This document shows positions 11,153-29,170 of a stretch of 64,000 bases of DNA, one piece after another. The notes beneath the pieces were generated by a model that was not told the DNA's origin, searched no databases, and worked only from the letters and a program-made list of their open reading frames with translations. The position numbers and the translations under genes are program-made. Every line of letters begins with the position of its first letter. Position 1 is the stretch's first letter. This stretch comes from a virus, in the IMG/VR virus record IMGVR_UViG_3300042356_000801, positions 27,170 through 91,169 of that record, one strand, 5' to 3'.

Positions 11153-12469
11153 CTAAATGACGATAGCAATTCTTCTTCTCTGTTGCAACCCCAAACCTGC
11201 CAAATGTGTAAAAGCTCCTACAGCAGAGTCGACTTGGTCGTCATGGTCGCAAGCTTCGGGGAATGACGAGAACTCATCAAGCCAATGAGTAAGCCACGGC
11301 CCCCTGACCACGCGGACGTTGCCGTTAGCCATAGCGGCAGCAAATGGACGAGCCCTGGTTACCTTGTCTCCAGTAGCCCTAATCCCAGTGAAGTTGTAGC
11401 CAGGAAGTACATATCTGGCATATTGGTCCACAAGGGCCTTTCCGGAAGAGCCAGGCTCCATTTCCATCAAGATTGGGGTATCTAGGCCGTCTTCGTAGGC
11501 TGTTTGTGCAATCAGTTGCTCTACCTTTTCGCCCTTAACCCGCACCCGTTTTACGTCCATGACATAAGCAATTCCCTGGTCAAACATCATTAGCGTGCCT
11601 ACCGTATAGTCAGGGTCGGGGTTGTTTGCGCTTGGCTCGGTGGCTGCAAGGTCCCAAAAACGGACGACTTTTGCCGTATTTGAGATTGTTGGGACCTCTG
11701 ATTGGTCAATAATTATGACGGATTCTCGCTCAAATAAGCTTCCGAGAGTGGTGCTCCACCAGTCGCCTTCTTCAAGCCGCCTACGCTCAATAGGGTCAAG
11801 AGCCTGCAGGGCTTGACGGTATGAGTCTGCGTCAATTCCGGGGTTGTCGGTCAGTTTTGAGGGGACAAAGATTCTTCCTTCAGAAATCCCTTCCACGATA
11901 AACCTTTGCCTAACCCAGTTCGGGGCAGGGTTGGATGCACACCTCATTCGGAGTGGGACCTCGGAAAGGGGTCCAGAGTTGGGTCGGCGTAGACGGGAGA
12001 ACATGTATCGGTAGTCGGATTCACGGATTTCGGTGACTTCGTCCATCCCAATAAACTGGAATTCAGAACCCTTATAGCGAAGGTAGTCGGACTGGTTGTT
12101 TAGGTACCCAAAGGAAATTCTTGCCCCAGATGGGAAAGTTGCCACAAAACTGTTGTTATTCCAATGAACATCGTCATAGTTGGACATCCATGACTTAAAG
12201 CGGTCCATCAAGGCTCCAGGAAGAGACAAGTCAGCAAATGTACGACGGAAAAGAATTGCTGAATAGCTAGGGATATCAACAAACTGCATGGCTGACATAA
12301 GCAGTGCGGAAGACTTTCCACCACCTGCTGCCCCACCGAACAGGGCTTCCAGCCCGTTGGTTCTCAGGAATACCTTCTGAGGCAGAGACGGCTCTTCTGG
12401 GCAGTAGTCAGACATCTTCGGTTGAAGATATTCAAGAACACTTTCCCAGTTAGTTTGTGGTTCTGACAT
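11153..12469 (-). CDS. terL: Terminase large subunit
   Basis: GGAAGGGKS Walker A, FIGMDEVT Walker B, ASNP coupling motif, RFWDLAA and HDDQVDS nuclease motifs. Confidence 0.92.
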   Translation of the reverse strand: MSEPQTNWESVLEYLQPKMSDYCPEEPSLPQKVFLRTNGLEALFGGAAGGGKSSALLMSAMQFVDIPSYSAILFRRTFADLSLPGALMDRFKSWMSNYDDVHWNNNSFVATFPSGARISFGYLNNQSDYLRYKGSEFQFIGMDEVTEIRESDYRYMFSRLRRPNSGPLSEVPLRMRCASNPAPNWVRQRFIVEGISEGRIFVPSKLTDNPGIDADSYRQALQALDPIERRRLEEGDWWSTTLGSLFERESVIIIDQSEVPTISNTAKVVRFWDLAATEPSANNPDPDYTVGTLMMFDQGIAYVMDVKRVRVKGEKVEQLIAQTAYEDGLDTPILMEMEPGSSGKALVDQYARYVLPGYNFTGIRATGDKVTRARPFAAAMANGNVRVVRGPWLTHWLDEFSSFPEACDHDDQVDSAVGAFTHLAGLGLQQRRRIAIVI

Positions 12470-12715: not shown

Positions 12716-14788
12716 ATGGCGTGGAATCCTTCTACAAACAAGTCGCTAAATAACCAAGCGCAAAAAGACATTGGCCCAGGTGCTCCAGTAGCACAAAACC
12801 CTGGATATGCAGGCAAACCGTACAGGGACTCATGGGATATTGAGCGCGCCTACAGAGAGGGTATGCAGAAGGTCACATGGGTATCTAGGTGTATTGATGC
12901 CATTGCCGGAAACCAAGCCAGGCTTCCTATTATTCTCAGAAAAGACAACTCCCCACACGGAGAAATACTTTCCATAAAAGAAGCCAAAAAAGTACCATTG
13001 CTTAACATTTTGAACAGCAAGTCAAACATTGGTGAGAACTCTTACATCTTTAGGTACAGACTTTCTGCTCAGCTTCTTCTTGGCACAAGAGGTGCTTTTA
13101 TCGAAAAAGTGAGAGGTAGAGACGGGGGCATTATTGGCCTCAACCTTCTCCCGCCTCAATCAACTTCGCCAATCCCTGACCCAAAAAAGTTTGTTTCTGG
13201 ATATGAAGTTCAGATGCCAACTGGAAACAAAATCTTTCTAAAACCGGAAGATGTTTGCTGGGTAAGAAGACCGCACCCAATTGACCCGTATCTATCGTTG
13301 ACACCACTTGAAGCATGTGGAGTAGCCATTGAAATAGAAAACTTGGCAAAGCTTTACAACAGAAACTATTTGCTCAATGACGGAAGACCTGGTGGTCTTC
13401 TTGTTCTCAAGGGAGAAATAGATGACGATGACAAGGAAGAACTAAGAAGCAGATTCCGTGGAAACTTGTCTCGTGTTGGATACACCTCGGTAATCTCTTC
13501 CGATGAAGGTGTTGATTACATTGACACTTCGGCCAACCCACGAGATGCCGCCTATATCCAAATGCGTCAGCTCACAAAAGAAGAAATCCTTGCTTCTTTT
13601 GGTGTTCCTGAATCCGTAATCGGAAACGCTGCAGGAAGAACTTTCAGCAATGCTTCTGAAGAGATTCGAGTCTTTTGGATGGAAACAATGCTTCCTCACT
13701 TGGAAATTTTGTCTCGTGCCTTAGACGAACTTGACGTAGATAACTACGTTGACTTTAACGTGGACCAAGTGCCCATTTTGATGCTGTACGAGCAGGAGCG
13801 TCATCGCTACTTGATGGATGAGTTCAATGCAGGACTAATCAGCAACAATGAATACCGAATTGGTTCAGGTCGTAAAGAAACCGAAAGCGATTTGGCTGAC
13901 TCGTTGCTTGCCAATCCAAACCTCATCCCAATCTCTAACACCAAGAAGAAGATGGAAGAACCGTCCCAGGTTCAAGTTCCTGGAGCCCCAGGACAGCCAG
14001 GAATGCCTGGCATGCCACCTGGTGCCCCAGCGATGCCAGGGATGCCTCCAGTGCCCGGACAACCACCTGTGGACCCAAACACAATGGCCGGAGCACTTGC
14101 AGAAGTTGGCTCAACCGTTCCTCCTGGCGGGGAACTGGCTCAGTCCCCAATTCCAGGCATGCCTCCCGGCATGATGACGGGCGCAGAACCTATGCCTATG
14201 GGTGCAACAAGTGCTGAGTCTTCCGAACTTGAAACAAAGTCCCTCGATACGGAATTTGATTCTCAAAAACTAGAGATGGAAAGATGGGAAGAGATTCTTG
14301 TCAGAAGCATGGAAAGAGTTTTGGAAAGACAGCAAAGAGTTGTTCTTGAAAAATCAAGTGGAGCAAAAGCTAAGAAAGCTTTGTTTGCCGGAACCCTAGA
14401 CATCCCATCTGTTCTCCCAACGGATACATGGGATAGACAGTTTGATGAAGACATCAAGCCGGTCGTGACAGCCATCGTCAAAGAGTCGTTTAAAGCTTCT
14501 TCCCCTATGGGAAAGAAGTCTGCAAAAAACTCCACCATGGAATCTGACATTATTGCTCAGGTTGATTCTCAAATGGCAAGAATAAAAAGTCTTAACCAAG
14601 ATTTGACCGATGAAATAACTTCGTTAATGCTTTCTTCCATGAATGTCGCTGACGAAGACCAGAGAGCTGGAGCCTTCAGGTCAAACATTGTTTCTTTGTA
14701 CACAAACGTGCTCGCAAAGAGAATTCCTGAAATTGCCGAAGAAGAAGCTCGCAGGGCGTGGATGTACGGGAAGTACATCACAGGATAG
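12716..14788 (+). CDS. HK97-family portal protein with Pro/Gly/Met-rich linker and C-terminal extension
   Basis: WVSRCIDAIA..QARLP, QLLLGTRGAF, NDGRPGGLL, EILASFGVP. Confidence 0.9.
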   Translation: MAWNPSTNKSLNNQAQKDIGPGAPVAQNPGYAGKPYRDSWDIERAYREGMQKVTWVSRCIDAIAGNQARLPIILRKDNSPHGEILSIKEAKKVPLLNILNSKSNIGENSYIFRYRLSAQLLLGTRGAFIEKVRGRDGGIIGLNLLPPQSTSPIPDPKKFVSGYEVQMPTGNKIFLKPEDVCWVRRPHPIDPYLSLTPLEACGVAIEIENLAKLYNRNYLLNDGRPGGLLVLKGEIDDDDKEELRSRFRGNLSRVGYTSVISSDEGVDYIDTSANPRDAAYIQMRQLTKEEILASFGVPESVIGNAAGRTFSNASEEIRVFWMETMLPHLEILSRALDELDVDNYVDFNVDQVPILMLYEQERHRYLMDEFNAGLISNNEYRIGSGRKETESDLADSLLANPNLIPISNTKKKMEEPSQVQVPGAPGQPGMPGMPPGAPAMPGMPPVPGQPPVDPNTMAGALAEVGSTVPPGGELAQSPIPGMPPGMMTGAEPMPMGATSAESSELETKSLDTEFDSQKLEMERWEEILVRSMERVLERQQRVVLEKSSGAKAKKALFAGTLDIPSVLPTDTWDRQFDEDIKPVVTAIVKESFKASSPMGKKSAKNSTMESDIIAQVDSQMARIKSLNQDLTDEITSLMLSSMNVADEDQRAGAFRSNIVSLYTNVLAKRIPEIAEEEARRAWMYGKYITG

Positions 14789-14887
14789 TTTTAGTATTTG
14801 GTTTTAGTAAACAATGCGAAAAACCTGAATACTTACCGTTTAGTGCAGTCTTTGTCGTTTATTATCGAAGAATACACAAGGAGCCAC

Positions 14888-17800
14888 ATGCCCTCTTCTA
14901 AGAAAAATTCCGACATTCAGTACAAGGCTGCACCGCAAGGAATGGTGAATCTTGACGAAGCCGAAGGCATCGTTGAATGTTTTGTCGCAGGTATTGGTAA
15001 CAAGGACTCAGTCGGCGATGTTTGCGCCCCTGGAGCTTTTGGCAAGAGCCTAATTAGGCGTAAGCCTCGCGTTGTTTGGGGTCATAACTGGAACGACCCA
15101 ATCGGTAAAGTCCTTGATATGTATGAGGTTCAGCCAAGTGACCCTCGTCTTCCTAACAAAATGAAGGCTGCCGGAATTGGTGGCTTGTATGCCCGCGTTC
15201 AGTTCAACTTGAAGTCAGAAAAGGGCCGCGAGGCTTTTGCAAATGTGGCATTTTTTGGCGAAGAACAAGAATGGTCAATCGGCTACAAGACGATTAATGC
15301 CAAGTTTGACCCACAGATGCAAGCAAACATTCTGTATGAAGTTGAGCTTTACGAAGTTTCTCCAGTTCTTCATGGTGCCAACCAGCTGACAGGAACAATT
15401 TCAATAAAGTCCGAAGACCAGTCATCAACAGTTTTAGTAAACGAACAACCATCTATCGACGGCCTCAACATAAATGAGCTTTCTTCAGTTTTAGATGCGT
15501 TGAAGACGATTGCGTCCACCACAGATGAAAAGTGTGGACCCGGAATGCCAATGGGCATGCCTGCGCAAATGCCAATGGTGATGCCATCTGGTGGACCAGG
15601 AATGCCTTCTGTATCAAAACCAACACAACCAACCGCCCCAAGAGAGTCCGTGAAGCCAGAAGTTCCATCAATGCCGGAAAACCCAATGCTTGTAGCAATT
15701 AGAAGAGAATTGGTCGACAGGACTGGTTCAAATATTATTGTTCGTTCCGTAATAGAAAACATAGTTGTATTCGACAGAATTACTACTGATGGAATTTCTA
15801 GTACTTATAAACTTCCTTTCAACTATGCAAACAATGAATTCATGTTTGGTAAGCCAGAGAAGATAAACACACAGCCAACTCCAGAGTCAAGTATCCCAAC
15901 AATGCCAGGAATGCCTCAACAGTTCGGCGGGTTCGATACTGGAAAATCTTTGATTTCGTTTGATGACTTTTCCTGGGTAGGTTTTAACCAGCAGATACCA
16001 GCTCAACAAGTTGATATATCTACGCTCAACAATGTCATCAGTAATCTTGAAAAGATTATCGAAGAGAAGTCGACATACATAATCCCCGTTGACATAAACA
16101 ACGCATTTGAAGTTAAGCAAGCAATTGACCCAATTCTTGATTACTACAGAGTTGATGCAACTGTTACTGAAGACGGCATCGTTGTTAAGTCTCTTGATAA
16201 CGAGTTCCTTGACGCAATGGACATTGCCACAAAGGGTGTGTTGCGCAGTATCGGCAACATGGTTGGCCGTGCGGTAGATAGACCAAACATTGGCAAAAAT
16301 AGGCGTGATAGAAATCCTAACCTCGCATCAAGAGGTCGAGGAATTGGTTCCCGTGGAGCTGTAGTAAGACTCGCCGACGGAACGATGTGGGACCCAAAAA
16401 CCGCACCGGACAGGAACAATAACGGCATTGTAGGTGAAGGCCTTACAGACGGTCGCGGCATGTCTCTGTCCCAGCCGGACCCAACACCAAGTGGACCCAA
16501 CTCAATCGATGCTCCAAAGACACCTAAAGCCCCTAAAGCTCCAAAGAAGGCTACAAGACTTTCTTCTGGCGGAGATGATTCTTCACGTGCTCGCGACCTT
16601 GCTAAGCAACGGGAAATGGATAAGGCAAGAGGTGCTAGTGCTACAAACCCAGTAGGAAAAGAAGCCGTCGAGCAAGCCAAAAAACTTGAAAGAGAAAGAG
16701 CAGCAGCACGTCAATCTGAAACTCGTCTTTCTTCTGGGCGCGTCATAATGTCGGACGGTCAAATGGAAATATCATTTGATGAAGAAGACGGAGATGGCAT
16801 CTATGACGCAACAAGAGACGGTTTCCGAATAATTAGAAATGAACGTGGCAGCGGCGGTGGCAGAAGATTCCCAGAATCCACAGCAACGTACGGCGGGTCA
16901 GGTTTAAGTGAAGCCGAGAAAAAAGAAATTCTTGACGTCGTCAAGGATAGTTCCAACCCATTGGTTCAAAAAATATTGAAGGGTTCATTTCCTAGTAGCT
17001 TGTCCGATAAACAGTGGGCTGTTCTTAAAAGGGAATTTGAGAAGAACAAGAAGAAAACTCCTTCTGGCTATATAAGCAATGTCCGAAGCGGTGGAACAGT
17101 TGCTCCTGGAGCAAAACTTGATGGCGGAATTGCTTATCTTGAACCAGACCACGCCAACGACAAAGACTACGAAAACCTACGTGACGCAATACAGACAGCA
17201 ATGCGCTCCAATCAGATGCTTCGTTTTGACTACAGTGGAAAAAACAGAGAAGTAATTCCAGTAAAAATTGAGAAGAACAATAAAACTGGTAAGTGGAACT
17301 TGACTGCCCAAGACGACACTGGGGCAAGAAAGCTTTTTAGTCTCGACAAGATAACTCCGTCTTCGGCAGAGCGCCTTTCCTCTGGTGAGTGGACAAAAAC
17401 TGATGACGGCATTGAGATGGACGCGCCGGATATTGATGGTGGTTACCTAATACAAGGCAACTCCAAAGATGGATTTGTAGTAACTAGATTTGCGGACGCT
17501 AGACGTAACGGTGGACAAAATGCTAACGAATACGAACATGACAAAGTTTTCACGTCAAGTAGCGCGGCTAAGAAGTGGGCAGAAAGAAACTACAAACTAA
17601 TCAGCGAAGAAATAGGCAAAGAGGACGTAGAAATAAGAAAAGCTGACGCAGAAAGAAGCGCAGACTTTGCAGACATGACTCCAGAAGATGCCGCAGATTA
17701 TGCCGCTTGGATGGACGAAGAAACCTGGAGAGACAGGGACCCAAGATTCTCCTCCGGTGAAGGATATTGGGTAGATGCTGCAGAAAAAGAAGCAGGAAAT

Positions 17801-20800
17801 GACCCTAAAAAACTTGCTGATTTCTTGATTGAACAAGGAATACTTGAAGAAGACCACCCAAGAGTCAAGAAGCTCAGAAACCGTTTAACCGCCGACGACG
17901 AGTTTGAAAAAACATTTTCAATGCTTGCCGAGATGGATGCTGAAGCTGAAGCAGAAAGCAGAGCAGAAAGGCGTTCAACCCAGTTTACGGCTGTAGAAAA
18001 CCCATTCGGACGTCTTTCCTCTGGTCAGAGAACATGGATAGATGCCGCAGAGGATGAAGCAGGAGACGACCCTAGGGAGCTCGCTGATTTCTTACTTGCA
18101 AGAGGTGTTATCGACGAGGAAGACCACCCAATAATCAAGGGGCTCAGAGATGGTCGTACAGCTGACGATGAACTCGAAAAAGCATACGAAATGCTTGCTG
18201 AGATGGATGCCGAAGACCAAGCAGAACACGCTGCACAGTTTAAGAACGCAGCCTCAGAAGTAAGCAGTCTGACCAAGCCAACAATGCCGGACCTTGATGG
18301 AATGGACGAAGACGAAGCAGGAGATGCGTTACAACAGGCAAATGATGAGATATTAAGTTTTGCTGATGGAACAGAAAACATTGCGAGAGAATACCTTGGA
18401 GACGCAGAATACAACAAGAGGTTTGGTGGCGCAGTTCCATTAATCGAAGAGATGTCAAAAAACCATGACGGCGGCAATTACGAGCGTGAGATAGCTCTTG
18501 AAAACGCACTTGAGCGTGCTAATGGATTCAACCTGTCAGTCGCCGGAGAGATGGAATTAGAAAGCAACAGATTCTCTTCTGGTATAGATTTTGACAAGAA
18601 AGGTGCATCAGGCCTCAGGGAGATGCGCCATGTTGAGCGCAATCCACTCAGGATGGATTCATCTGCTGAAAAAGCAGAACGTGATGCATATGAAAAAGAT
18701 GTTGCTGCCTTCATAAAGAACAATGGCTGGTTTGTTGAAGTACCGATGTACAACGGTGACCCAAAGTGGCAAAGTGAAGATTGGTATCGCGCAAGAGAGT
18801 TTGCTACAAACGTTGCAAAATTGCGTTTCGAGGACAACTACCAAAACGAAACTAATCAATTCATGCAGTTCTTTGATAAGCCAGGAAAGCCTTCAAAGAA
18901 AGACTTCTTCGCCAAGAAGGGGACCGTTGATTACAAGTCTTGGTACATGGCTCATACCCCTCTATTGACAAGCGAAATAGACAGCGTTCTTAATTCTGAC
19001 CTGTACTCTGACAATTACAAAGAGTCATACATGAATGCTATTCGTTCATTCTTGTATGTAAACAGGCCTGAATTTGGTCCATACGGTGGAGATGACCCCG
19101 CTTACCAAGCATGGCTACAACAGTCGGGTCTTGGTTACGGTGGAAGATACAGCACGTCAGGTCCAAAATTTGACGAAATGGGCAGATTCTCTTCTGGTGC
19201 TAAGCGTGGAAGTAGAAAAGATAACTACATAAATTCTTACGAAAACCCAGAAGACTTGAAAGAAGCAATCTTTTCTGAGCTTATTTTTGCAGGAGACTAT
19301 GAAGGAATGACTGCGGAAGACTTGGCCTACGCGCTAAATGTCAGGGCAGAAAGTGTTGAACCAATTCTTGAGCAAGTCAAAAAAGATGTAGGCGACGCAC
19401 GGGAAGACTACGACCGCTACTTAGAGTCACAACCAGAAATGACTGACGAAGACCTGCAGGCAATGGCGGATGACTATGCTCGCGCACAGACTGTAACCGA
19501 CAAGTTTAACAACATGACTCCAGAAGAAGCAGCCGATTACGCCGCTTGGATGGACGAAGAAACCTGGAGAGACAGGGACCCAAGATTCTCCTCTGGTAGG
19601 GAACTTACCGACGAAGAAAAGCAAGAACTGGGGGCTCAATTTGCCAGAGCCCAAGACAGGCGAAAAGCTGAACTGGAAGAACGGGGGGCTCAATTTGCCA
19701 GAGCCCAAGATAGGCGGAAAGCAAAAGAAGACCGCATCACTAAGTTCTACAGGGAGATGGCAGAGCAAAATGCAATGCTTTCAGAAATGACCCCAAGCGA
19801 ACTCGCGGATTACGCCGAGCAATGGAACGAAAGCCATGCAGAAGATTCTCGTCTTTCCTCAGGTGGTATAAACTATTACGACTGGATGGTAGAAAATGGT
19901 GTTCCGCGTTCAGCACTAGACGGTGAAAGGTTCCGTGGAAGAGACGCTTACGGACACTCTTTCCATGACTACTATGCGGAAGATGCTTTTGCAAATATCG
20001 ACGAAGCAGTCGTTGAAGCGCTTCTTTCTGACAGAACACAACGAACATCTATTCAGGATTTAGCAAAAGAAGCAAGAGAACATGGGCTTCAACTGGCCAC
20101 CAACCGCAGCATGCAGGAAGAGTTCTCCTGGGCTGAGGCAGTAAATCCAAAACCTGAGAGCTTGCGCGCGGAAGATTTGGTTCGTAGACCTGATGACTTA
20201 GGCTCAAACGCAAGACGCGTAGCTGAAGCAGTTGCTAACAACAGTAATGGCGCAAGAAGTGCTGCGTCTAGAGAAGACATTCTTCATTTTACCTACGATG
20301 GTAAACAGCGCTCTGTGTATCCAGAATCATTTGGGACAAGCAAAAAAGGCATTGCCTTCTTTAGAGCCTGGGACGAAACCGCAGACGATGGCAATGGTGC
20401 CTACAGAAGCTTTAATATCGACAAGATTGAGGGACTGGTTTCACACGCAATACCTCCATATGTTGAAATAGGAACAATGACCCCAGAGCCCAAGTGGAGC
20501 ATTGCTGACTTCAGCATAGAAGACTGGGCAAAAATTAATGACCGGTTCTATTTTAGAAGTAGCGAAGTTGGTCGGGCGGCGTTTGATATTGAGACCGCTA
20601 TTCAATGGGAGCTTGAAGGCACTGGAACAAGGGCTCCAGGTTCGATAATCGACACAGCCGAAAGAGAACTAAAGCGCCTCAAGCAAATTGCTTTCGACAA
20701 ACACATCACCGAGATGGTGGAAAAGGGTGCTACAAGTTCAAAATTCTCTCTTGACATTGAAAATGCAAAAAGATACGGTGTAAAGCCACTCAACAGAGGA

Positions 20801-23800
20801 AATAGACTGTCTTCTGGCGGTTCGGGCAGGTTCAATATTGCGGAAGCTCGTTCATTTGATGACATGTCAGACAGGGAACAGCTTGCAGTCTTCAACGGAA
20901 TCAAGGACAGACTTTCAGAAAATAACCCAAGCATGGTTAGCGTCCTGGAAGACGGCGGACTCAACATCGATGGATATCTTGCAGATTTCCCTCAACTTCA
21001 CCCAGACTTCTCTTCAGAAGAAAGCGGCGGAGAAAGGTTCTCTTCTGGTGGTTTTGCACCACCAAAGCCAAAAAGAGCAGCAAGAAAAGATGAAGAAGGC
21101 TTAATCGATGGCGCAAGAGTCATGCGAGGAAATACTTTCATCGAAAGCGTTGTTGGTCAGTATGAGAGAAATCGTGGAAAACTAAGTGATGCGCAGTGGG
21201 CCAAATTGGCCGAGATTGTTGGAAGAGGTTCTAAACCAACATCAGCCGGTGCTCCAACCCCAAAAAGGCCAAGCAAGGGTCCAAGACTGGAAAAGTACTC
21301 TGGTAAGCCTCGCAAGATAATAGGCATAGACGAAGTTGTACCATACGATTACCCTGAAGCCGAGTTTAAGCCAAACCCAGAACAGGCTGATGCGATTGAC
21401 GCCATGATGACAGGCTCTGACGTAAAAGTTGGAGCTTTAGCAGCAACAGGTAAAACAACAACAGTAATAAGTTTTGCCAATCGTTTGGCCGCTCAAGACC
21501 CAAGCGCAAGAGTGCTTTATTTAGTTTTCAACAGAGACGCCAAGAGCGATGCTGAAGCTCGCGGAATGGGTGACAATGTTTCCGTTATGACGATGGACGG
21601 TATTGCGTTTAAAGCCATGATAGGGGCTGGTGGTTCTCCAGGTCTTAGGCCTGGTCTAAAAACCAAACTGTATGAAGCCGGAAAAGCGTCCATGGATGAC
21701 TCGGTTAGGTCGTACGTAGGCAAGGCAGCATATCTTGGAATCAAGGGAGCTTTTATACCGCGAGATGGTGATGCACCACTTGAATTAACTCCCACAGATA
21801 TTTACAAAATTGTTGCTAAAGGCGTAAACGCTTACTCAATAAGTTCAGACGAAAAAATAGGACCACAGCATTTTACTGGGAAATTTAATGGACCTTTAGC
21901 AATTCCTGAAGACAGCCCAATAATGCCTAACGTATTAAAATATGCCAACAAGATGTGGGAAGACCTGCAACAGGATAGGGACAACTTAAAAAAGCAAGGA
22001 ATGCTTGGTCTTGAGTCTAACCATCTAACAAAGATGTGGGCACTGACTAAACCAGATGTTGCAAGTTTTGGTGGCACTGATGGCGTAAACGTAATCATGG
22101 TTGACGAAGCTCAGGATATTAACCCTGTGTTTGCAAAAATGATGAAAGATTCTAAGTCTGCACAAAAAATATACATTGGTGACACCAATCAGGCAATCAA
22201 TGCTTGGCGTGGAGCTGATGGCTCAACCTTGGATGCAGTAGAAGCTGAATACGATATGCCGATAACCGAATCGTACAGATTCGGAGCGAAGATAGCAGGC
22301 ATAGGCAACAGGTTCTTGACTTTGCTTGGGGTAAAAGAACGCATGACCGGAAAAAAGACAAGAGCAGGCAAAAACGGCTCTCGTGTTGATGTTCCAGGTG
22401 AAGTTGTTACCGAAATGAGCGTTTTAGACGCAACAATGATTCTTTGTCGCAGCAATGGTGGAGCCATAGCCGCAACCATGGAAGTAATTGAAGAGGGTGG
22501 CGGACAAAAGAAAGTTTACGGAAGCGCAAATTTCAAAAAAGATTTACAAAACTTTATTGACAATATTGAGTGGATGCAGAATGCCGAAAAAGGCGAACCC
22601 TATTGGACAAATTCTCGCGGAGAGAGAATGACAAGTAGGCCAGAATTCAGCGCGGACCTTGAAGGAATAACAACGTACGAAGAATTTAAAAAAGAAGTTG
22701 CTTCTGCGGACAATAACAGACTAAACATGCTCGATGGTTTATTGGAAAAGAATTCAATACCAGGACTACGTAATGCTTTAGACAATATTCTCACAAGAAA
22801 AGAAGACATAGAAAAGCTAGACCCTAACGATTATGTAAAGATACAAACAGCACATACATCAAAAGGCCTTGAATCTGGAAAAGTGAAAATTTGGTCAGAC
22901 TTCAGAAAGCCAAAATTTGACGAAGAACTCGAAGAATGGGTTATGCCAAACGAGCAGGAACTTAGGTTGTCTTATGTTGCTGTAACTAGAGCAGAAGAAG
23001 AAATTGACCTCGGTTCACTCGATTGGGTTTTTAACCACACAACAGATGCAGACGAGAAGCCAAACGCTCGTTCCGCCAGGTTGTCTTCTGGAAGAAGCAT
23101 TGCAAGAAGACAGGGCAAGGGCAAGAACAGTCGTGCTCGTGGACAGCGTCCATGGAGCGATGAAGACCGTCAAAACTTTGCTGATGGCAATAGGCTCCGT
23201 GCTCAAACAATTCCAGGCAAGCGCCGTGAGGGACCTGCAGCAGCAGAATTCTCTTCTGGTGAAAGACTTTCTGCTGGTGGTTCTGGATTCTATCTCGACA
23301 ACCCACCAGACGACGACTCCGATAAGTGGATAGACATGGCAAGCGACGATTACAGGTCTATATCTGATTCATGGAGGGATTTCCCAGAAGAAACAGATGA
23401 ATTCCTTTCCGACTTTTGGAGCTCTCATGAAACATGGGGCCAAAACCCTCCATCGCCATGGGAATTTACTGCAGAAAATCTTTCAGAAATAACAGACATT
23501 TTTGAAAACACGCAAAGACCTTCAGCATACGAGCCATACTATAAGCAATTACGCGACTTAGAAGGCCTTCCAAAAGAAGACATAATTAAAGCGTTAAAAC
23601 AAATACGCGAAGACGATGATGACACGCAAATGTTTGTGGAATTCTTTAACAAAGATGTTTTTGAAGTTGCCGAAGAAAAAGAAGCACCACTTGGTAAGTA
23701 TGTCCTTGAGGCATTGCAAGAATGGAACAACCTCCCCAAATGGCTAGAGAATAGCCAAACGGACGACGGTTACACTCGCCCGTACAGGTTCTATTCTGGA

Positions 23801-26800
23801 GCCCGTTTTGCGCCAGATGGCGAGTCGGGTTCACGAATCCAAAGAAGACTTTCTTCTGGAGAATACTTTGGACCACCTCCAACCGGCAGCGGCAAGTACA
23901 ACAGCAGAGAACAGGTCCGCGCATCGTTGGATGCGTTCCACAGTGACCCGGGTACCGCAGTAATCCCGTCCGACATGCTGGGCATACTTGGTTCTGTTCC
24001 AAAGGGTAAGGAATCTCATATTCTTAATGCAGAAGTTGCAAAAAAGATTATTGCTAATCCAGATATGGAATATTCGTCAAACAACGGCTGGCCCGTTGAC
24101 GCAGGCAGGCTTCTTGACTTTATTGAAGTAAACGAAGAAGATGCCATCAGAACTCTTCGCGAAATTGGAGACGCTCAACGTATTTCTTCAATTCTTGGCA
24201 TACCAGAAAAAGATGCGCAAGACATGCTTGACGGCAAGCCCGTATACATCATGGCGGGAACGGCTGCAGACATGCTTGACGACCTCAAGGAAGGAAAACA
24301 TTACCTAGAGGCTGGCCAGCTTGGTAATGAGGACGTAACAAGAATCTGGGGATTTGATGGTGCTCCAAAGTGGGTTCGCCATAGCGATATCGCTACCCCG
24401 GAATATGACCTTGACGAACAAGGCAGGGTTAACTGGTCTAAAGAAAAATGGGACAGTCTTTCAAGAGAACAATTTGATGCTGAACTAGCAAGAGGCAAAA
24501 ACCCACCAGAGCCTGTTTACGAATCTCCAGTAGAGCGTTTTAACTCGGAAGCAATTTTTGACAACCCTAAGTGGAATGCTCGTAGTGGCTCGTTCAGGAA
24601 CCCAGTAGTGGATTCAGAATTTGCAGTAGCACCACGAGCCGCAAGAAGGTCAGAACAGCTAGAGCCAACGAGAGCACCATCTCAGGCAAGAGTTGGCGAA
24701 AAAACCGTAATGGCTGACAAGGAATTTGCAGCAAAGTGGATTAAGCGTGGACATAGCGTTACTGCTTCAAACATGATGGACATTCTTGGGGTTGAAAGAG
24801 ATTCTAAAAATCCAGAACCTTCAACTGAAGAGCTGAACAGGCTTATTGAAGCAATGAATGAAGTTAGTGCAAAAGTAGGACTGACTCCTTTGTCGGTCAC
24901 AAGGGCACCAACAAAAAGTGACCTTAAAAAATTGGGAATTTCCGACGAGTTTATGCATGCTCTTGTTGCTTCTGGAAAGTTTAAGAACATGAAAGAAGCA
25001 ATGGCAAGTCTTGGTGATTCAAGATTTGATTCATTGGCTGCCGAATATGACTCAAGAATGCTTTCCGATGCCGCTTTGTTGAGAATAAAAGACAAAATGA
25101 ACAAAGAAGGCGTTCCCAATTCAGTAGCTGTTCTGATTGAGGCAATTACTGCTTCTTTTGGCCGCAAGCAAGCATGGGAAAAGCGAATCAAAGAAGGTCG
25201 CGTATCCATCAAGGGTGACATGAAGGAAGACGGAATGATTAGCGATGCTAAACTTTCTGAACTGCTTGGGCGAGTGAACGATGCTCTCGCAAGGTCTGGA
25301 TACCCAGAAATAAGTCAAGACGAACTTTTCCCCAAGGACGAAACTGGCGGATATGTTGACAACCTTAGCTCTGCTGTTCCCGGTGCGCCAAGAATGTCTT
25401 CAGGTCAAAGGTTTGTAGCAAGAACATCTTCAAGCAGAAGAGCTGACGCTATGAACGATGCTGCTGCTCGTAGAGAAGGCAATACTTCTCGACTTTCAAG
25501 CGGAGAAAGCCTTCCATTCAAAGACGAAAACGGGAAGCTTGTTCCAAGCAATATTAGTCAAGCCGCAAAAGATGCAACACCCGCTAATCCTGGATTCGAC
25601 AGGGAGCCGCTGATTCAAAGAAAGACTCCACATAGAAATTTAGAAGATGTTGAAAAAGCGCTCAAGACAAGACAAGCAATTTCCGAACTTTTCACAATGA
25701 ATCGCAAAAACACTCAAGGATTTAGCGTGTACGACTACCAAGACGAACTAGTAAAAGCTGGATTCCCACTGGAAGAAATTGAAGAAATGATTGATTCGTT
25801 TGTTCGACTAGATTCCTACATTGATGATGTAGAAAGACATTTCGAAATAGCAAGAGAAAAACTGGATGAAACACTTGAAGAGATAGAAGACAATCTTTCC
25901 AAGATTGAAAGACTCAAGGGAGAAAGAGCAGACGCAATCAAGAAGTGGGGGAACACCGAGGACAACTACTGGGTGCAAGCAATAGATGACAAAATTGCTG
26001 CTGCAATGATTAAAATCGATAAGGCATACCAAGGCGGAATCGGTGGAGAAGACGGCCGACTCGGAACACTTCATCCACAGCTTGAAGAAATGATGAGCGC
26101 GATGCCGGGCTGGACCGAAGGTCCATACGGAATGGGTGACGACATAAATCGACGACTTCTTAAAGTTGAAGCTTCTATCAGCAAGGCTGGCGGAAAAAAG
26201 AAGGCTGTTCCAGTAACTGGAATTGACTTTGGAGTACCAGAAGGCACAAGACTTTCTTCAGGAAAAGCAGAAGAGTACTACCAAAACCTCACAAGCCATC
26301 TCATCAACATGATTGAAAAGTCACAAAAAGATGGTGGCAAGTGGGAAGCACCGTGGCACAAGGCCGGCAATATGCCGAGAAACGCTTCTACAAAGAATAT
26401 GTACTCAGGCGGAAACCTCTTTGCTCTCATGCTTGCAGCAGAAGAAAAGGGCTACGCAACTCCTCATTGGGGCGGATTCCAGCAATGGAAGAAGCTCGGC
26501 GGAAGCGTAAAGAAGGGTGAAAAAGCCACTGCGATTCTTATGCCTAAAACGATGTTTGGAGATGAAATTGACCCAGATACAGGCAAGAAGGTTCGCAAGT
26601 CTAAGGGTATCTATTTCACAACCGCACACGTGTTCAACCTCGACCAGGTTGAGGGTATTGACCGCGAAGAATTCTTGAAGCTTCCAACCGATGCTCTTAC
26701 TCCAGAGCAAAGAGTCGGAAAACTTGAGGACGCAATCAAGGAAATTGGTGCAACAATCAACACGGGAGACGGAAGCAGGGCTTACTACTCTCCTCGTGAA

Positions 26801-27406
26801 GACCATGTTGTTATGCCTCCATTTGAACTCTTCAAGACACCAGAGGGCTATTATGGAACTCTTGCTCACGAGCTTGTCCACTGGACCGGCCATTCGTCAA
26901 GGCTTGACAGAAAAAACATGAACCAGTTTGGCTCACCAGAGTATGCAAGAGAAGAACTCATTGCAGAATTTGGTTCAGCATTCTTGCTTGCAATGTTCGG
27001 GCTTTCTGCGGAACCAAGAGAAGACCACGCCCACTACTTGGCCAACTGGCTTCAGGTTCTTCGTGATGAGCCAAACGCCTTGCAAGAGGCTTCTACAAAG
27101 GCTCAAGAAGCATCAAAGATGCTCATCACAAAGATGAAGATAGTCCTGGAAGAAATGGGCGAAATAGCATCGGATGCAGAGTCGGCAGCTGAAGAAGCAG
27201 TCGATGTAAAGAGTTTGCAAGTTTTCAATGACCCACTATACGAATTCAAAGATGCGTCTATCGAGTGGAGTAAAGACCCACTTCATGCACCGTTCTTGAT
27301 TAAGTCTCTGGATGATGAAAAGCATTCATCGGGTCTTGTTAATAGAAGTTGGGAAAGAATTGCAGAAACAGCAATTTTCCTTGAACGTCTGAGCAGAAAT
27401 AAATAA
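14888..27406 (+). CDS. Giant polyvalent head protein 1 (~4,170 aa): prohead protease plus RLSSG-delimited cargo modules
   Basis: Single open frame; AGGAG SD before ATG 14888 (track start 14798 is a TTG); domains listed below. Confidence 0.85.
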   Translation: MPSSKKNSDIQYKAAPQGMVNLDEAEGIVECFVAGIGNKDSVGDVCAPGAFGKSLIRRKPRVVWGHNWNDPIGKVLDMYEVQPSDPRLPNKMKAAGIGGLYARVQFNLKSEKGREAFANVAFFGEEQEWSIGYKTINAKFDPQMQANILYEVELYEVSPVLHGANQLTGTISIKSEDQSSTVLVNEQPSIDGLNINELSSVLDALKTIASTTDEKCGPGMPMGMPAQMPMVMPSGGPGMPSVSKPTQPTAPRESVKPEVPSMPENPMLVAIRRELVDRTGSNIIVRSVIENIVVFDRITTDGISSTYKLPFNYANNEFMFGKPEKINTQPTPESSIPTMPGMPQQFGGFDTGKSLISFDDFSWVGFNQQIPAQQVDISTLNNVISNLEKIIEEKSTYIIPVDINNAFEVKQAIDPILDYYRVDATVTEDGIVVKSLDNEFLDAMDIATKGVLRSIGNMVGRAVDRPNIGKNRRDRNPNLASRGRGIGSRGAVVRLADGTMWDPKTAPDRNNNGIVGEGLTDGRGMSLSQPDPTPSGPNSIDAPKTPKAPKAPKKATRLSSGGDDSSRARDLAKQREMDKARGASATNPVGKEAVEQAKKLERERAAARQSETRLSSGRVIMSDGQMEISFDEEDGDGIYDATRDGFRIIRNERGSGGGRRFPESTATYGGSGLSEAEKKEILDVVKDSSNPLVQKILKGSFPSSLSDKQWAVLKREFEKNKKKTPSGYISNVRSGGTVAPGAKLDGGIAYLEPDHANDKDYENLRDAIQTAMRSNQMLRFDYSGKNREVIPVKIEKNNKTGKWNLTAQDDTGARKLFSLDKITPSSAERLSSGEWTKTDDGIEMDAPDIDGGYLIQGNSKDGFVVTRFADARRNGGQNANEYEHDKVFTSSSAAKKWAERNYKLISEEIGKEDVEIRKADAERSADFADMTPEDAADYAAWMDEETWRDRDPRFSSGEGYWVDAAEKEAGNDPKKLADFLIEQGILEEDHPRVKKLRNRLTADDEFEKTFSMLAEMDAEAEAESRAERRSTQFTAVENPFGRLSSGQRTWIDAAEDEAGDDPRELADFLLARGVIDEEDHPIIKGLRDGRTADDELEKAYEMLAEMDAEDQAEHAAQFKNAASEVSSLTKPTMPDLDGMDEDEAGDALQQANDEILSFADGTENIAREYLGDAEYNKRFGGAVPLIEEMSKNHDGGNYEREIALENALERANGFNLSVAGEMELESNRFSSGIDFDKKGASGLREMRHVERNPLRMDSSAEKAERDAYEKDVAAFIKNNGWFVEVPMYNGDPKWQSEDWYRAREFATNVAKLRFEDNYQNETNQFMQFFDKPGKPSKKDFFAKKGTVDYKSWYMAHTPLLTSEIDSVLNSDLYSDNYKESYMNAIRSFLYVNRPEFGPYGGDDPAYQAWLQQSGLGYGGRYSTSGPKFDEMGRFSSGAKRGSRKDNYINSYENPEDLKEAIFSELIFAGDYEGMTAEDLAYALNVRAESVEPILEQVKKDVGDAREDYDRYLESQPEMTDEDLQAMADDYARAQTVTDKFNNMTPEEAADYAAWMDEETWRDRDPRFSSGRELTDEEKQELGAQFARAQDRRKAELEERGAQFARAQDRRKAKEDRITKFYREMAEQNAMLSEMTPSELADYAEQWNESHAEDSRLSSGGINYYDWMVENGVPRSALDGERFRGRDAYGHSFHDYYAEDAFANIDEAVVEALLSDRTQRTSIQDLAKEAREHGLQLATNRSMQEEFSWAEAVNPKPESLRAEDLVRRPDDLGSNARRVAEAVANNSNGARSAASREDILHFTYDGKQRSVYPESFGTSKKGIAFFRAWDETADDGNGAYRSFNIDKIEGLVSHAIPPYVEIGTMTPEPKWSIADFSIEDWAKINDRFYFRSSEVGRAAFDIETAIQWELEGTGTRAPGSIIDTAERELKRLKQIAFDKHITEMVEKGATSSKFSLDIENAKRYGVKPLNRGNRLSSGGSGRFNIAEARSFDDMSDREQLAVFNGIKDRLSENNPSMVSVLEDGGLNIDGYLADFPQLHPDFSSEESGGERFSSGGFAPPKPKRAARKDEEGLIDGARVMRGNTFIESVVGQYERNRGKLSDAQWAKLAEIVGRGSKPTSAGAPTPKRPSKGPRLEKYSGKPRKIIGIDEVVPYDYPEAEFKPNPEQADAIDAMMTGSDVKVGALAATGKTTTVISFANRLAAQDPSARVLYLVFNRDAKSDAEARGMGDNVSVMTMDGIAFKAMIGAGGSPGLRPGLKTKLYEAGKASMDDSVRSYVGKAAYLGIKGAFIPRDGDAPLELTPTDIYKIVAKGVNAYSISSDEKIGPQHFTGKFNGPLAIPEDSPIMPNVLKYANKMWEDLQQDRDNLKKQGMLGLESNHLTKMWALTKPDVASFGGTDGVNVIMVDEAQDINPVFAKMMKDSKSAQKIYIGDTNQAINAWRGADGSTLDAVEAEYDMPITESYRFGAKIAGIGNRFLTLLGVKERMTGKKTRAGKNGSRVDVPGEVVTEMSVLDATMILCRSNGGAIAATMEVIEEGGGQKKVYGSANFKKDLQNFIDNIEWMQNAEKGEPYWTNSRGERMTSRPEFSADLEGITTYEEFKKEVASADNNRLNMLDGLLEKNSIPGLRNALDNILTRKEDIEKLDPNDYVKIQTAHTSKGLESGKVKIWSDFRKPKFDEELEEWVMPNEQELRLSYVAVTRAEEEIDLGSLDWVFNHTTDADEKPNARSARLSSGRSIARRQGKGKNSRARGQRPWSDEDRQNFADGNRLRAQTIPGKRREGPAAAEFSSGERLSAGGSGFYLDNPPDDDSDKWIDMASDDYRSISDSWRDFPEETDEFLSDFWSSHETWGQNPPSPWEFTAENLSEITDIFENTQRPSAYEPYYKQLRDLEGLPKEDIIKALKQIREDDDDTQMFVEFFNKDVFEVAEEKEAPLGKYVLEALQEWNNLPKWLENSQTDDGYTRPYRFYSGARFAPDGESGSRIQRRLSSGEYFGPPPTGSGKYNSREQVRASLDAFHSDPGTAVIPSDMLGILGSVPKGKESHILNAEVAKKIIANPDMEYSSNNGWPVDAGRLLDFIEVNEEDAIRTLREIGDAQRISSILGIPEKDAQDMLDGKPVYIMAGTAADMLDDLKEGKHYLEAGQLGNEDVTRIWGFDGAPKWVRHSDIATPEYDLDEQGRVNWSKEKWDSLSREQFDAELARGKNPPEPVYESPVERFNSEAIFDNPKWNARSGSFRNPVVDSEFAVAPRAARRSEQLEPTRAPSQARVGEKTVMADKEFAAKWIKRGHSVTASNMMDILGVERDSKNPEPSTEELNRLIEAMNEVSAKVGLTPLSVTRAPTKSDLKKLGISDEFMHALVASGKFKNMKEAMASLGDSRFDSLAAEYDSRMLSDAALLRIKDKMNKEGVPNSVAVLIEAITASFGRKQAWEKRIKEGRVSIKGDMKEDGMISDAKLSELLGRVNDALARSGYPEISQDELFPKDETGGYVDNLSSAVPGAPRMSSGQRFVARTSSSRRADAMNDAAARREGNTSRLSSGESLPFKDENGKLVPSNISQAAKDATPANPGFDREPLIQRKTPHRNLEDVEKALKTRQAISELFTMNRKNTQGFSVYDYQDELVKAGFPLEEIEEMIDSFVRLDSYIDDVERHFEIAREKLDETLEEIEDNLSKIERLKGERADAIKKWGNTEDNYWVQAIDDKIAAAMIKIDKAYQGGIGGEDGRLGTLHPQLEEMMSAMPGWTEGPYGMGDDINRRLLKVEASISKAGGKKKAVPVTGIDFGVPEGTRLSSGKAEEYYQNLTSHLINMIEKSQKDGGKWEAPWHKAGNMPRNASTKNMYSGGNLFALMLAAEEKGYATPHWGGFQQWKKLGGSVKKGEKATAILMPKTMFGDEIDPDTGKKVRKSKGIYFTTAHVFNLDQVEGIDREEFLKLPTDALTPEQRVGKLEDAIKEIGATINTGDGSRAYYSPREDHVVMPPFELFKTPEGYYGTLAHELVHWTGHSSRLDRKNMNQFGSPEYAREELIAEFGSAFLLAMFGLSAEPREDHAHYLANWLQVLRDEPNALQEASTKAQEASKMLITKMKIVLEEMGEIASDAESAAEEAVDVKSLQVFNDPLYEFKDASIEWSKDPLHAPFLIKSLDDEKHSSGLVNRSWERIAETAIFLERLSRNK
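14945..15415 (+). other. Domain: HK97-type prohead (capsid maturation) protease
   Basis: GNKDSVGDV..PGAF, WGHNWNDPIGK (His), EWSIGY (Ser), LYEVSPVLHGAN. Confidence 0.9.
17160..17360 (+). other. Domain: WYL-like #1
   Basis: AM..NQMLRFDYSGKNREVIPVKI...WNLTAQD..GARKLFSLDKI. Confidence 0.7.
17675..17758 (+). repeat. 84-bp direct repeat, copy 1 (MTPEDAADYAAWMDEETWRDRDPRFSSG)
   Basis: Matches 19514-19597 with 5 differences by eye. Confidence 0.9.
19514..19597 (+). repeat. 84-bp direct repeat, copy 2
   Basis: Matches 17675-17758. Confidence 0.9.
19631..19722 (+). repeat. Tandem duplication, 54-bp period (GAQFARAQDRRKA x2)
   Basis: GGGGCTCAATTTGCCAGAGCCCAAGA at 19631 and 19685. Confidence 0.85.
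20270..20435 (+). other. Domain: WYL-like #2
   Basis: ILHFTYDGKQRSVYPESF...FFRAWDE...AYRSFNIDKIEG. Confidence 0.7.
21365..23040 (+). other. Domain: UvrD/Rep-like SF1 helicase
   Basis: PEQ..AI, ALAATGKTT, LVFNR, MVDEAQD, IGDTNQAINAWRGA, ESYRFG, ILCRSN, TAHTSKGLE, LSYVAVTRA. Confidence 0.92.
26264..27150 (+). other. ardC: Domain: ArdC-like antirestriction module (ssDNA-binding N-domain plus zincin)
   Basis: W..PW, PRN..T...YSG.N, WGGFQQWKKLGGSVKKGEKA, VFNLDQVEG, AYYSP..D.V.MP, TLAHELVHWTGH..RLDR, YAREELIAE, HAHYL.NWL..L. Confidence 0.92.
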
Positions 27407-27493: not shown

Positions 27494-29170
27494 ATGAACG
27501 ACGAAATGAACAACAGCCTTAGTGTCAGCACTGAGGGCGAAGTTCTGAAGTGCGCAAAAGGCGTAGATGCTTCAGCATGCGGGTTTACCCCTGGCGCAAA
27601 AGTGTGCGGCAAGTGCGGAGCCTTGCCGGTTCAGATGAAGATGGTCCCCGTGGATGAGGCCGAGGACGAAGAAGAGGAAATGGAAGACGAAGACAGAGCA
27701 ATGCCTGCGCCTCGTCCTGCACGCCCTGCTGGCCCAATGGCTATGGAAGATGCCAACATGGAACCGGAACAACTTGAGGTCCCAGAAGAAGACGAAGAAG
27801 AAGAATTGACCGATGAAGAAAAAGGCCTCCTTCGAATGCTTCTAAAAAAGCGCAAAGGTCGCAAGTTCAAGGGAATGAACATGGAAGATGACTACGAAGA
27901 GGAAGAGGATATGACCGACGAAGAAGAGATGACTGACGAAGAGAAGGCTTTTCTCTCGCAGGTAAACAAGAAGCGTAAGGCTCGCGGTCTCGCCGCCACC
28001 ACAAACGGCTTCAAGGGCATGAACGGCACACACATGACGCCTGACGGAACCGAGATGGAAGACATGCCCGATGAAGAAGAGGACTTGACTGATGAAGAAA
28101 AAGAACTCTTGGCAACCCTAAACAAGAAGCGTAAGGCTCGTGGTCTTGCTTCAACTTCAAACGGGTTCAAAGGCAAAGGCATGGACGAGGACGAAGTGTC
28201 TGAAGAAATGCCCGACGACGAAGAAGTAGAAAAGCAGATGATGCTTGAAAGAATGCGCAAAAAGCGTATCAAGTCTATGGGTATGAAGTCTGAAGCCTTT
28301 GGTGCCAACGGCTACCTGTGTGCAATTGAAAGAAAAGCTTATCCAGGCGGTTCGTCTGTTTGTGATGATTGCCCAGGCGGATGTATTGCTGAAAAGGGTC
28401 TTCCTGGCTTGCTTCATGTTGAAGGCATTGCCGAGCAAATGTTTGACGGAAAAGTTCTTGATTCTGGCTACTCAGCAAAAGCTGACATGTACGTCATTGA
28501 TGTGCAGACAAAGAGTGGCTCTGTGAATGAAGTTTTTATTGATGGAACAACTGCTGAAGTGCAAGGCTTCCACAAGCTTGACAACTCAGTGTTTGAACAG
28601 AAGTCAGCACAGGGTGGACTTGAGATGATTCAGTTCCACGAAGCAGCAGACATTGCGGTCAAGTCAATTGATGGCCATGTAATAGGTGTAGAGCCAGACT
28701 CTTTTGAGGGAATTGATTCATACGCAGTTGAAATTGACGGCTTTGACGGAAAGTCATACGACGTTTTTGTTTCTCTTGACGGAGAAGTCCTTGGTTACGA
28801 TAAGTACGAGATGGACGAGGCAGAAGAGATTGAAGCAGAGGCTGCAGAGATTGCACTTAAACGCGCATTTACTGACGACCAACGCAACTCGATGTCTAAA
28901 GAAGGAACTGCAATGTCAGATGGTTCTTTCCCAATTAAGAGCGAATCAGATTTGCGTAACGCAATTCAGGCTCACGGTCGCGCAAAGGATAAAGAAGCCG
29001 CAAAGCGTCACATCATGAAGCGTGCTAAGGACATGGGCAAAGAAAGTCTTATTCCTTCCAACTGGGTCATGGGTGGCGGAACTGAAAAAAAGAGTGACAC
29101 CGTAGACGCAGGTCTTATGGCTTCTTTGATTGAGTTTGAACTTCTTCAAGCCGAAACAGAAACAAACTAG
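27494..29170 (+). CDS. Acidic head-associated protein (scaffold/internal-protein candidate)
   Basis: AGGAG SD; Cys clusters; three (L/M)TDEEK...KKRK.R...FKG repeats; PepSY-like segments; C-terminal AMSDGSFPI....DLRNAIQAHGRA motif. Confidence 0.65.
   Translation: MNDEMNNSLSVSTEGEVLKCAKGVDASACGFTPGAKVCGKCGALPVQMKMVPVDEAEDEEEEMEDEDRAMPAPRPARPAGPMAMEDANMEPEQLEVPEEDEEEELTDEEKGLLRMLLKKRKGRKFKGMNMEDDYEEEEDMTDEEEMTDEEKAFLSQVNKKRKARGLAATTNGFKGMNGTHMTPDGTEMEDMPDEEEDLTDEEKELLATLNKKRKARGLASTSNGFKGKGMDEDEVSEEMPDDEEVEKQMMLERMRKKRIKSMGMKSEAFGANGYLCAIERKAYPGGSSVCDDCPGGCIAEKGLPGLLHVEGIAEQMFDGKVLDSGYSAKADMYVIDVQTKSGSVNEVFIDGTTAEVQGFHKLDNSVFEQKSAQGGLEMIQFHEAADIAVKSIDGHVIGVEPDSFEGIDSYAVEIDGFDGKSYDVFVSLDGEVLGYDKYEMDEAEEIEAEAAEIALKRAFTDDQRNSMSKEGTAMSDGSFPIKSESDLRNAIQAHGRAKDKEAAKRHIMKRAKDMGKESLIPSNWVMGGGTEKKSDTVDAGLMASLIEFELLQAETETN

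Follow-up and report, generated by a model that had tools for sequence, protein, structure and literature searches.

The 64,000-nucleotide stretch analysed here (the window: positions 27,170 to 91,169 of the IMG/VR virus record IMGVR_UViG_3300042356_000801) carries an open reading frame (ORF) of 4,202 amino acids (aa) at 14798-27406 on the plus strand, in which an S78-family prohead protease is followed by a long series of segments separated by the five-residue peptide tag R[LFM]SSG. The initial annotation had singled out about a dozen segments between 16739 and 26263 as uncharacterised, tag-bounded candidate effectors, and these segments and the tag that delimits them are our subject. The tag occurs 16 times in the ORF against 0.016 copies expected from composition, and 2,000 shuffles of the protein never gave more than two copies. 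Every one of the 18 SSG tripeptides in the protein falls within a tag or a variant of it (EFSSG at 23246-23260, which is directly followed by a degenerate RLSAG to give the tandem EFSSG-E-RLSAG, and KHSSG at 27320). Since the tag codons vary synonymously across both serine (TCN/AGY) and both arginine (AGR/CGN) codon families, the tag is maintained as a peptide, and a DNA repeat is ruled out by the same variation. The tags split the protein into M0 and M1-M16 (17 modules), as follows; pI is the isoelectric point.

14798-16555 (+): M0, S78 prohead protease (aa 58-201) and a conserved region of ~380 aa, the polyprotein anchor
16556-16738 (+): tag RLSSG (16556-16570), M1, a 51-aa basic peptide of pI 9.4, and tag RLSSG (16724-16738)
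16739-17371 (+): M2, 211 aa, with a C-terminal WYL-like beta domain; then tag 17372-17386
17387-17743 (+): M3, 119 aa, pI 4.35; then tag 17744-17758
17759-18010 (+): M4, 84 aa, pI 4.5; then tag 18011-18025
18026-18568 (+): M5, 181 aa, pI 4.05, net charge -33; then tag 18569-18583
18584-19183 (+): M6, 200 aa, with many invariant polar residues in its alignment; then tag 19184-19198
19199-19582 (+): M7, 128 aa, pI 4.1, predicted helical; then tag 19583-19597
19598-19849 (+): M8, 84 aa, two predicted long helices; then tag 19850-19864
19865-20803 (+): M9, 313 aa, predicted central SH3/WYL-like beta core and helices; then tag 20804-20818
20819-21034 (+): M10, 72 aa, pI 4.15; then tag 21035-21049
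21050-23077 (+): M11, UvrD-like helicase (aa 2193-2735; Pfam UvrD-helicase and UvrD_C); then tag 23078-23092
23093-23278 (+): M12a, a 51-aa basic peptide of pI 11.9, ending in EFSSG-E-RLSAG
23279-23845 (+): M12b, ~190 aa, pI 4.2, Trp-rich; then tag 23846-23860
23861-25390 (+): M13, 510 aa, conserved core at aa 54-197; then tag RMSSG 25391-25405
25406-25504 (+): M14, a 28-aa basic peptide, with tag 25490-25504
25505-26248 (+): M15, 248 aa, predicted long-helix (coiled-coil-like); then tag 26249-26263
26264-27403 (+): M16, terminal, ArdC-N and MPTase-PolyVal zincin (aa 3826-4100; Pfam 91.6 and 146 bits)

The membership of M0 in Peptidase S78 is clear from both family collections (PF04586, 42.3 bits against a cut-off of 21; PHROG_80 head maturation protease, E 4e-27). 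The seven segments for which the initial annotation gave coordinates coincide exactly with M3, M6, M7, M10, M12b, M13 and M15, each of them bounded by tags, and M11 is the sole characterised module within 16739-26263. Some modules are related to one another: M4 and the N-terminus of M5 are internal paralogues (52% identical over 82 aa), M2 and part of M9 are paralogous through a WYL-like stretch that they have in common (E 2e-5), and the final 26 aa of M3 repeat the C-terminal tail of M7. An acidic tail of ~26 aa, MTPEEAADYAAWMDEETWRDRDP-RFSSG, precedes three junctions (17666-17758, 19505-19597 and 19772-19864), with a variant of it before the tag at 19850, and relatives retain this tail ahead of the same tags; it may extend the recognition signal, or serve for docking, at some sites. 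M12a contains a conserved PGKRxxGPSxxEF, in which, in the window, EF stands where the tag normally has RL.

Family searches run module by module (Pfam, PHROGs and NCBIfam) placed none of M3-M10, M12, M13 and M15 above threshold, which agrees with the earlier remark that these segments hold no recognisable motif. M2 gave the sole hint of a named family, a match to the WYL domain PF13280 at E 8.8e-4 and 19.7 bits, under the 21.8 cut-off. In all, thirteen segments are without a family match in Pfam, PHROGs, NCBIfam and PDB sequences. Several segments had also been described as small and strongly acidic; M3, M4, M5, M7, M10 and M12b have a pI of 4.05-4.54 with 21-27% Asp plus Glu, and M1, M12a and M14 are short basic peptides. 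Because the 4,202-aa protein is acidic throughout (its net charges add up to about -175), acidity is not special to the small modules. A profile search of PDB sequences with the alignments of M6-M7 and M13-M15 gave no match, and M6 and M13 had no usable match in the ESM Atlas. When M12b-M15 was searched with HMMER against 1.84 billion representatives, six proteins were returned, namely the query itself, three giants of 3,047-3,988 aa and two short fragments; among these representatives M12b matched only itself. The search for stand-alone homologues that the initial annotation had proposed came back empty: word-based searches found none for M3-M5 or M9 (none among proteins of 172-548 aa for the latter), and for M6-M7 they found only two fragments, on contigs of 1-2 kb. 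These searches require common five-residue words, so that distant stand-alone relatives could escape them.

Two AlphaFold2 models cover much of the orphan region. In the model of M5-M10 (1,003 residues, 14-row alignment), the mean predicted local distance difference test score (pLDDT) is ~86 for M5, ~68 for M6, ~82 for M7, ~77 for M8, ~48 for M9 and ~45 for M10. M5-M8 come out as confidently predicted helical folds. M5 is modelled as all-helical with a C-terminal four-helix bundle and M8 as long helices; the beta core and later helices of M9 reach ~67-70, and M10 is marginal. The model of M12b-M15 (6-row alignment) has a mean pLDDT of 48.5, with long helices at 65-80 in M15, a patchy M13 and values mostly below 40 in M12b. 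All eight tags within the two models fall in dips of pLDDT below 50 between better-predicted domains. Fold searches of the 1,003-residue model (Foldseek against PDB and BFVD; VIA-align) returned generic helical-bundle or long-helix matches only. The C-terminal bundle of M5 gave such generic matches at Z ~10, which is uninformative for helical bundles, and the beta core of M9 gave weak local matches to PafBC and SH3 folds.

A viral-contig scan with M0 recovered 412 relatives, M0 standing immediately behind the portal gene, and 79 of these loci were kept for comparison. In all 79, the portal gene is followed by the protease-fused ORF, which in most is a giant of at least 900 aa. Apart from M4 and M12b, all modules have homologues among the 79, each match lying within a protease-fused giant; a second scan with the M6-M7 alignment recovered the same contigs. 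M4 has no match in the 79 loci and matches only the N-terminus of M5 in its own protein, and M12b is likewise absent from them. The C-terminal half of M5 was found in 11 loci, including the lineage whose tag is GFASRG, M6 and M7 in 16 each, and M15 in six; M10 has homologues in L010, L051 and L056, and M2 in L007, L008 and L056. M12a is the most widespread of the small modules (25 of 79 loci), with members in the lineages tagged RLSSG, KLSSG, GLSSG and GFASRG. Against the closest relative, L010, the ratio of nonsynonymous to synonymous substitution rates (dN/dS) is 0.09 for M6, 0.13 for M7, 0.10 for M10, 0.12 for M12a, 0.22 for M13 and 0.23 for M15, with 0.08 for the comparison modules M0 and M16, all of them rough values as dS is near 1. 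In the unsaturated pair L005/L006, module values range from 0.03 to 0.38, and the homologues of M9 and M13 both stand at 0.07. These ratios show purifying selection on the orphan modules. The initial annotation had named, as the outcome that would speak against its proposal, segments that are disordered, without homologues and free of purifying selection; instead, several are predicted to be folded, all but M4 and M12b have homologues, and the dN/dS values are those of constrained sequence.

Selection on the modules goes together with turnover of the module set between close relatives. L010 is without M2, M4, M5, M8, M9, M11 and M12b despite the 86% identity of its M0 and M16. In L005 and L006 (giant ORFs from 9971), the M0 proteins are identical, the second cargo module measures 197 aa in one and 96 aa in the other, and one module is 60% identical amid neighbours at 96-97%, which we read as a clean case of module-by-module recombination. 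Turnover of this kind fits an arms-race locus. It also bears on the alternative that the modules are internal head material, such as scaffold, inner-body-like filler or modulators of charge or pressure, and not effectors that act in the host. The modules are mostly helical and acidic, show no catalytic motif, are never found as genes of their own and are joined to a protease/scaffold region, all of which would suit such a role. However, differences as sharp as those between close relatives, seven modules in L010 and single modules in L005/L006, would be unusual for essential structural parts, and domains that act on nucleic acids (ArdC, UvrD helicase and WYL-like) are part of the same polypeptide, so we regard internal head material as an improbable explanation. 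The reading that we prefer, with a probability of about 0.6, is that each orphan segment is a separate cargo module that folds on its own, within a polyvalent protein that begins with a capsid protease; polyvalent proteins of phages and conjugative elements are the subject of Iyer, Burroughs, Anand, de Souza and Aravind (2017; PMC5512222).

The tag is found beyond the 4,202-aa protein, and its distribution involves the following features of the head module and its surroundings.

11153-12469 (-): large terminase, head module
12716-14788: portal, head module, directly before the 4,202-aa ORF
14798-27406 (+): giant ORF 1, 4,202 aa, S78 protease and tagged modules
27494-29170: 558-aa protein with acidic/basic repeats, between both giants
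29188-37941 (+): giant ORF 2, 2,917 aa, with tags in its C-terminal half
33154-37236 (+): seven R[LF]SSG tags in the C-terminal half of giant ORF 2
43918-45288 (+): major capsid protein, downstream of both giants
44197-44211 (+): HLSSR, aa 94-98 of the major capsid protein, closing an N-terminal delta-like region of ~96 aa
19002-24137 of record G000 (-): tape measure protein, 1,712 aa, ~3 kb before the window start

When the full record is translated in six frames, the strict motif occurs in just three real ORFs, 16 times in giant ORF 1, seven times in giant ORF 2 and twice in the tape measure protein, which has RLSSG at aa 41 and aa 564 as well as RMSTG at aa 583. Other lineages carry other tags around homologous modules, among them KLSSG, GLSSG, G[FL]ASRG, GLRSxG, GMRS, GLAS and ISGRMG. 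The homologue of M10 is flanked by GFGSRG and GLASRG in L051 and L056, that of M2 by GFGSRG in L056, and ArdC by GFASRG in L065. The three tag classes that we counted (xLSSG, the G[FL]ASRG type and G[LM]RS) never co-occur in a single phage and form clusters on the protease tree (6 changes vs 23 in shuffles). The tag, by this comparison, goes with the phage lineage and not with the module. The tape measure protein follows the same pattern: its orthologue in G008, a complete genome of the GFASRG lineage, has EGLASRG at aa 61 and GFASSG at aa 643, positions equivalent to aa 41 and aa 564. With homologues carrying the local tag, divergence in L005/L006 jumping from module to module and tags lying in the pLDDT dips, the tags mark real, natural module boundaries, a role that the initial annotation had assigned to the linker.

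The major capsid protein may belong to this set as well. In xLSSG lineages the capsid junction reads [QH]L[ST]S, usually then RE, and elsewhere it is SLGSS in the lineage tagged GLAS, ARDMG with ISGRMG, GLERG with GLRS, GYAIPTR with GFASRG and QYRT with GMRS. Across six lineages, 29 of 720 permutations of junction against tag score as high as the true pairing. The evidence that the capsid junction resembles each lineage's own tag is weak to moderate, because the lineages are related and the windows were hand-chosen. A tag that shifts jointly in several virion proteins fits a protease recognition site. It may also be asked whether the tag is a flexible linker, a modification site or a recombination joint in a giant that works as a single multidomain protein. 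Tags do sit in predicted flexible stretches, and some polyvalent proteins, N4 vRNAP for example, are packaged uncut (PMC5512222). A plain linker, however, would need neither a fixed five-residue sequence nor a joint change across three or four proteins, the tape measure among them, and the synonymous codon variation speaks against a recombination signal at the DNA level. We consider this alternative highly improbable, and continue with the tag as a putative cutting site.

Our favoured candidate for the protease that would read the tag is the fused S78 enzyme, which is attached to the tagged chain in every relative and whose presumed capsid junction is tag-like. A competing candidate lies in giant ORF 2. 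The tag-free N-terminal 1,322 aa of this protein (29188-33153) are conserved in all tagged lineages and contain an HExxH motif (HEIAH) at aa 574, which reads HEFSH in L022, the sole relative whose retrieved DNA extends over that position. If this domain were a zinc protease, the tags could be cut in the cytoplasm or after ejection, with the modules still serving as cargo, and the tags of the tape measure, a tail protein that a procapsid-confined protease could hardly reach, would be accounted for. On the other side, the N-terminal 1,322 aa match no Pfam or PHROG family, peptidase families included, and their protease activity is putative, so that the region is best described as a candidate new metallopeptidase or head anchor; the constant fusion of S78 to the tagged chain and the tag-like capsid junction also favour the S78 enzyme. 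Cutting by the zinc protease therefore seems to us unlikely. The ArdC-type MPTase was considered as a universal reader of the tag and rejected, as it is absent from the tagged records G003-G005 and from the L064 giant.

For the preferred reading, of cargo modules headed by the S78 protease, the following course can be proposed. The C-terminal part of HK97 gp4 directs fused proteins into capsids, and by analogy the N-terminal S78 protease and the conserved extension of M0 would carry the whole chain into the procapsid. A phage protease would then cut at or next to R[LFM]SSG and free about 17 pieces. These would be released from the particle together with the DNA and take effect in the host at an early stage of infection, a role suggested by their ArdC, UvrD, WYL-like and exonuclease neighbours (the DEDD exonuclease is encoded in giant ORF 2). 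The modules are plausible as injected effectors from their context, that is, from the prohead protease fusion, the position in the head module and these same neighbours, and the acidic modules are plausible as DNA mimics from their net charge only.

Several points weigh against this proposal. The modules and tags are known here from sequence and predicted structure. For none of the orphan modules did the searches find a stand-alone homologue or a fold that hints at function, and the term effector is thus taken from context. Prediction is poor for M10, M12b and large parts of M9 and M13, and with alignments of 6-14 sequences a low pLDDT could reflect either disorder or shallow data. The match between tag and capsid junction looks loose, the tape measure tags are difficult to reconcile with a protease confined to the procapsid, and the uncut packaging of N4 vRNAP cited above offers a precedent for a chain that stays whole.

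Delivery of proteolytically trimmed cargo has precedents in other phages. T4 IPI-III and Alt (cut by gp21 at L/I-x-E) and the ejection proteins of phiKZ and SPN3US are procapsid cargo that is trimmed by the prohead protease and ejected into the host. The T4 and phiKZ cargos are encoded by separate genes, each with a targeting propeptide, and are cut after Glu by S77-type enzymes. The likeness to our system is a cargo trimmed at a short motif that also occurs in the capsid protein, with cutting here presumed; the differences are the single chain, the up to 17 sites, the S78 enzyme in cis and the hydrophobic-Ser-Ser-Gly core. Instead of an N-terminal targeting peptide of ~10 aa ending in L/I-x-E and an S77 protease, we found R[LFM]SSG tags and S78 in one chain. 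On the ejection proteins of phiKZ and SPN3US, see PMC10052503 and PMC5694885. HK97 gp4 (MEROPS S78) belongs to the same Pfam family, cargo attached to such a protease would enter the procapsid, and the delta-like region of the capsid protein ends here in the tag-like HLSSR; gp4, however, is small and stand-alone, whereas the targeting of a natural cargo is proposed here. The MuF-anchored polymorphic toxins of temperate phages likewise join a conserved head-protein anchor to variable C-terminal cargo, presumed to enter the host with the DNA, but their variable part is one toxin domain and they lack both a repeated tag and a protease anchor; family searches found no Phage_Mu_F match here. M3, M4, M5, M7, M10 and M12b resemble Ocr and ArdA in being small and strongly acidic, with M5 and M7 confidently predicted as helical, but they have no Pfam family match, belong to neither the Ocr nor the ArdA family by Pfam, PHROG or NCBIfam, and gave only generic helical bundles in fold searches (M5 included).

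The closest parallel is with the polyvalent proteins, for which proteolytic release and co-delivery with DNA have been predicted (PMC5512222). Many unrelated domains share one ORF here (MPTase-PolyVal at 146 bits, ArdC-N at 91.6 bits, UvrD helicase and S78), and the setting is one of late and virion genes (terminase, portal, giant 1, giant 2 and major capsid protein). From this domain content the 4,202-aa protein qualifies as a polyvalent protein sensu Iyer et al. (2017), the resemblance being a giant multidomain protein beside virion genes with ArdC-N, MPTase-PolyVal and a helicase among mosaic modules. The two differ in that an assemblin-like (prohead) peptidase is rare in polyvalent proteins and always C-terminal there (PMC5512222), whereas S78 lies at aa 58-201, N-terminal here and in all 412 relatives. 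They also differ in the fixed lineage-specific tag, linkers not being mentioned in that paper (PMC5512222), and in that most modules here fall outside its domain families. The N-terminal prohead peptidase and the fixed lineage-specific tag are what appears new relative to that description, and literature searches found no published description of this architecture.

As for the genomic setting, the source record of 91,169 bp is 57% complete by CheckV, and relatives with complete genomes are ~150 kb in size. The 558-aa protein between the two giants has 45-51% identity to proteins in L172 and L173, relatives with a protease that is not fused to cargo. Because it is present in relatives of this kind, it is a core head-module gene, and it perhaps encodes the scaffold. 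Among cultured phages the nearest are actinophages, namely Brevibacterium phage Cantare and Gordonia phage GMA6, with capsid proteins ~48% identical; in both, the protease gene lies at most ~1 kb from the capsid gene and there is therefore no space for a fused giant. Megablast of the phage collection matched no cultured phage. A 312-aa partial protein (P0009) in a Burkholderiaceae metagenome-assembled genome is 85% identical to the junction tail, and this bin contrasts with the hosts of the closest cultured phages, which are Actinobacteria.

More tentatively, and with less confidence than we attach to cargo modules as such, a genome-wide, lineage-specific peptide meaning "cut here" might let new proteins join a capsid-loaded, delivered chain, in which case M3-M10, M12b, M13 and M15 may form a reservoir of early-acting host-takeover and anti-defence proteins, some of which might have novel folds or mimic nucleic acids through their acidity. 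The map given here already turns 9.5 kb of unannotated sequence in the window into 13 defined, testable proteins. If the tags are cutting sites, they would mark, in more than 400 contigs, the exact limits of hundreds of protein units that are under selection but uncharacterised. Screens for anti-defence and host-takeover functions would thereby gain a ready library, and the loading of foreign proteins into capsids a natural design. On the same condition, bacterial viruses would use polyprotein processing, as many RNA viruses do, and would use it to deliver swappable proteins together with the genome.

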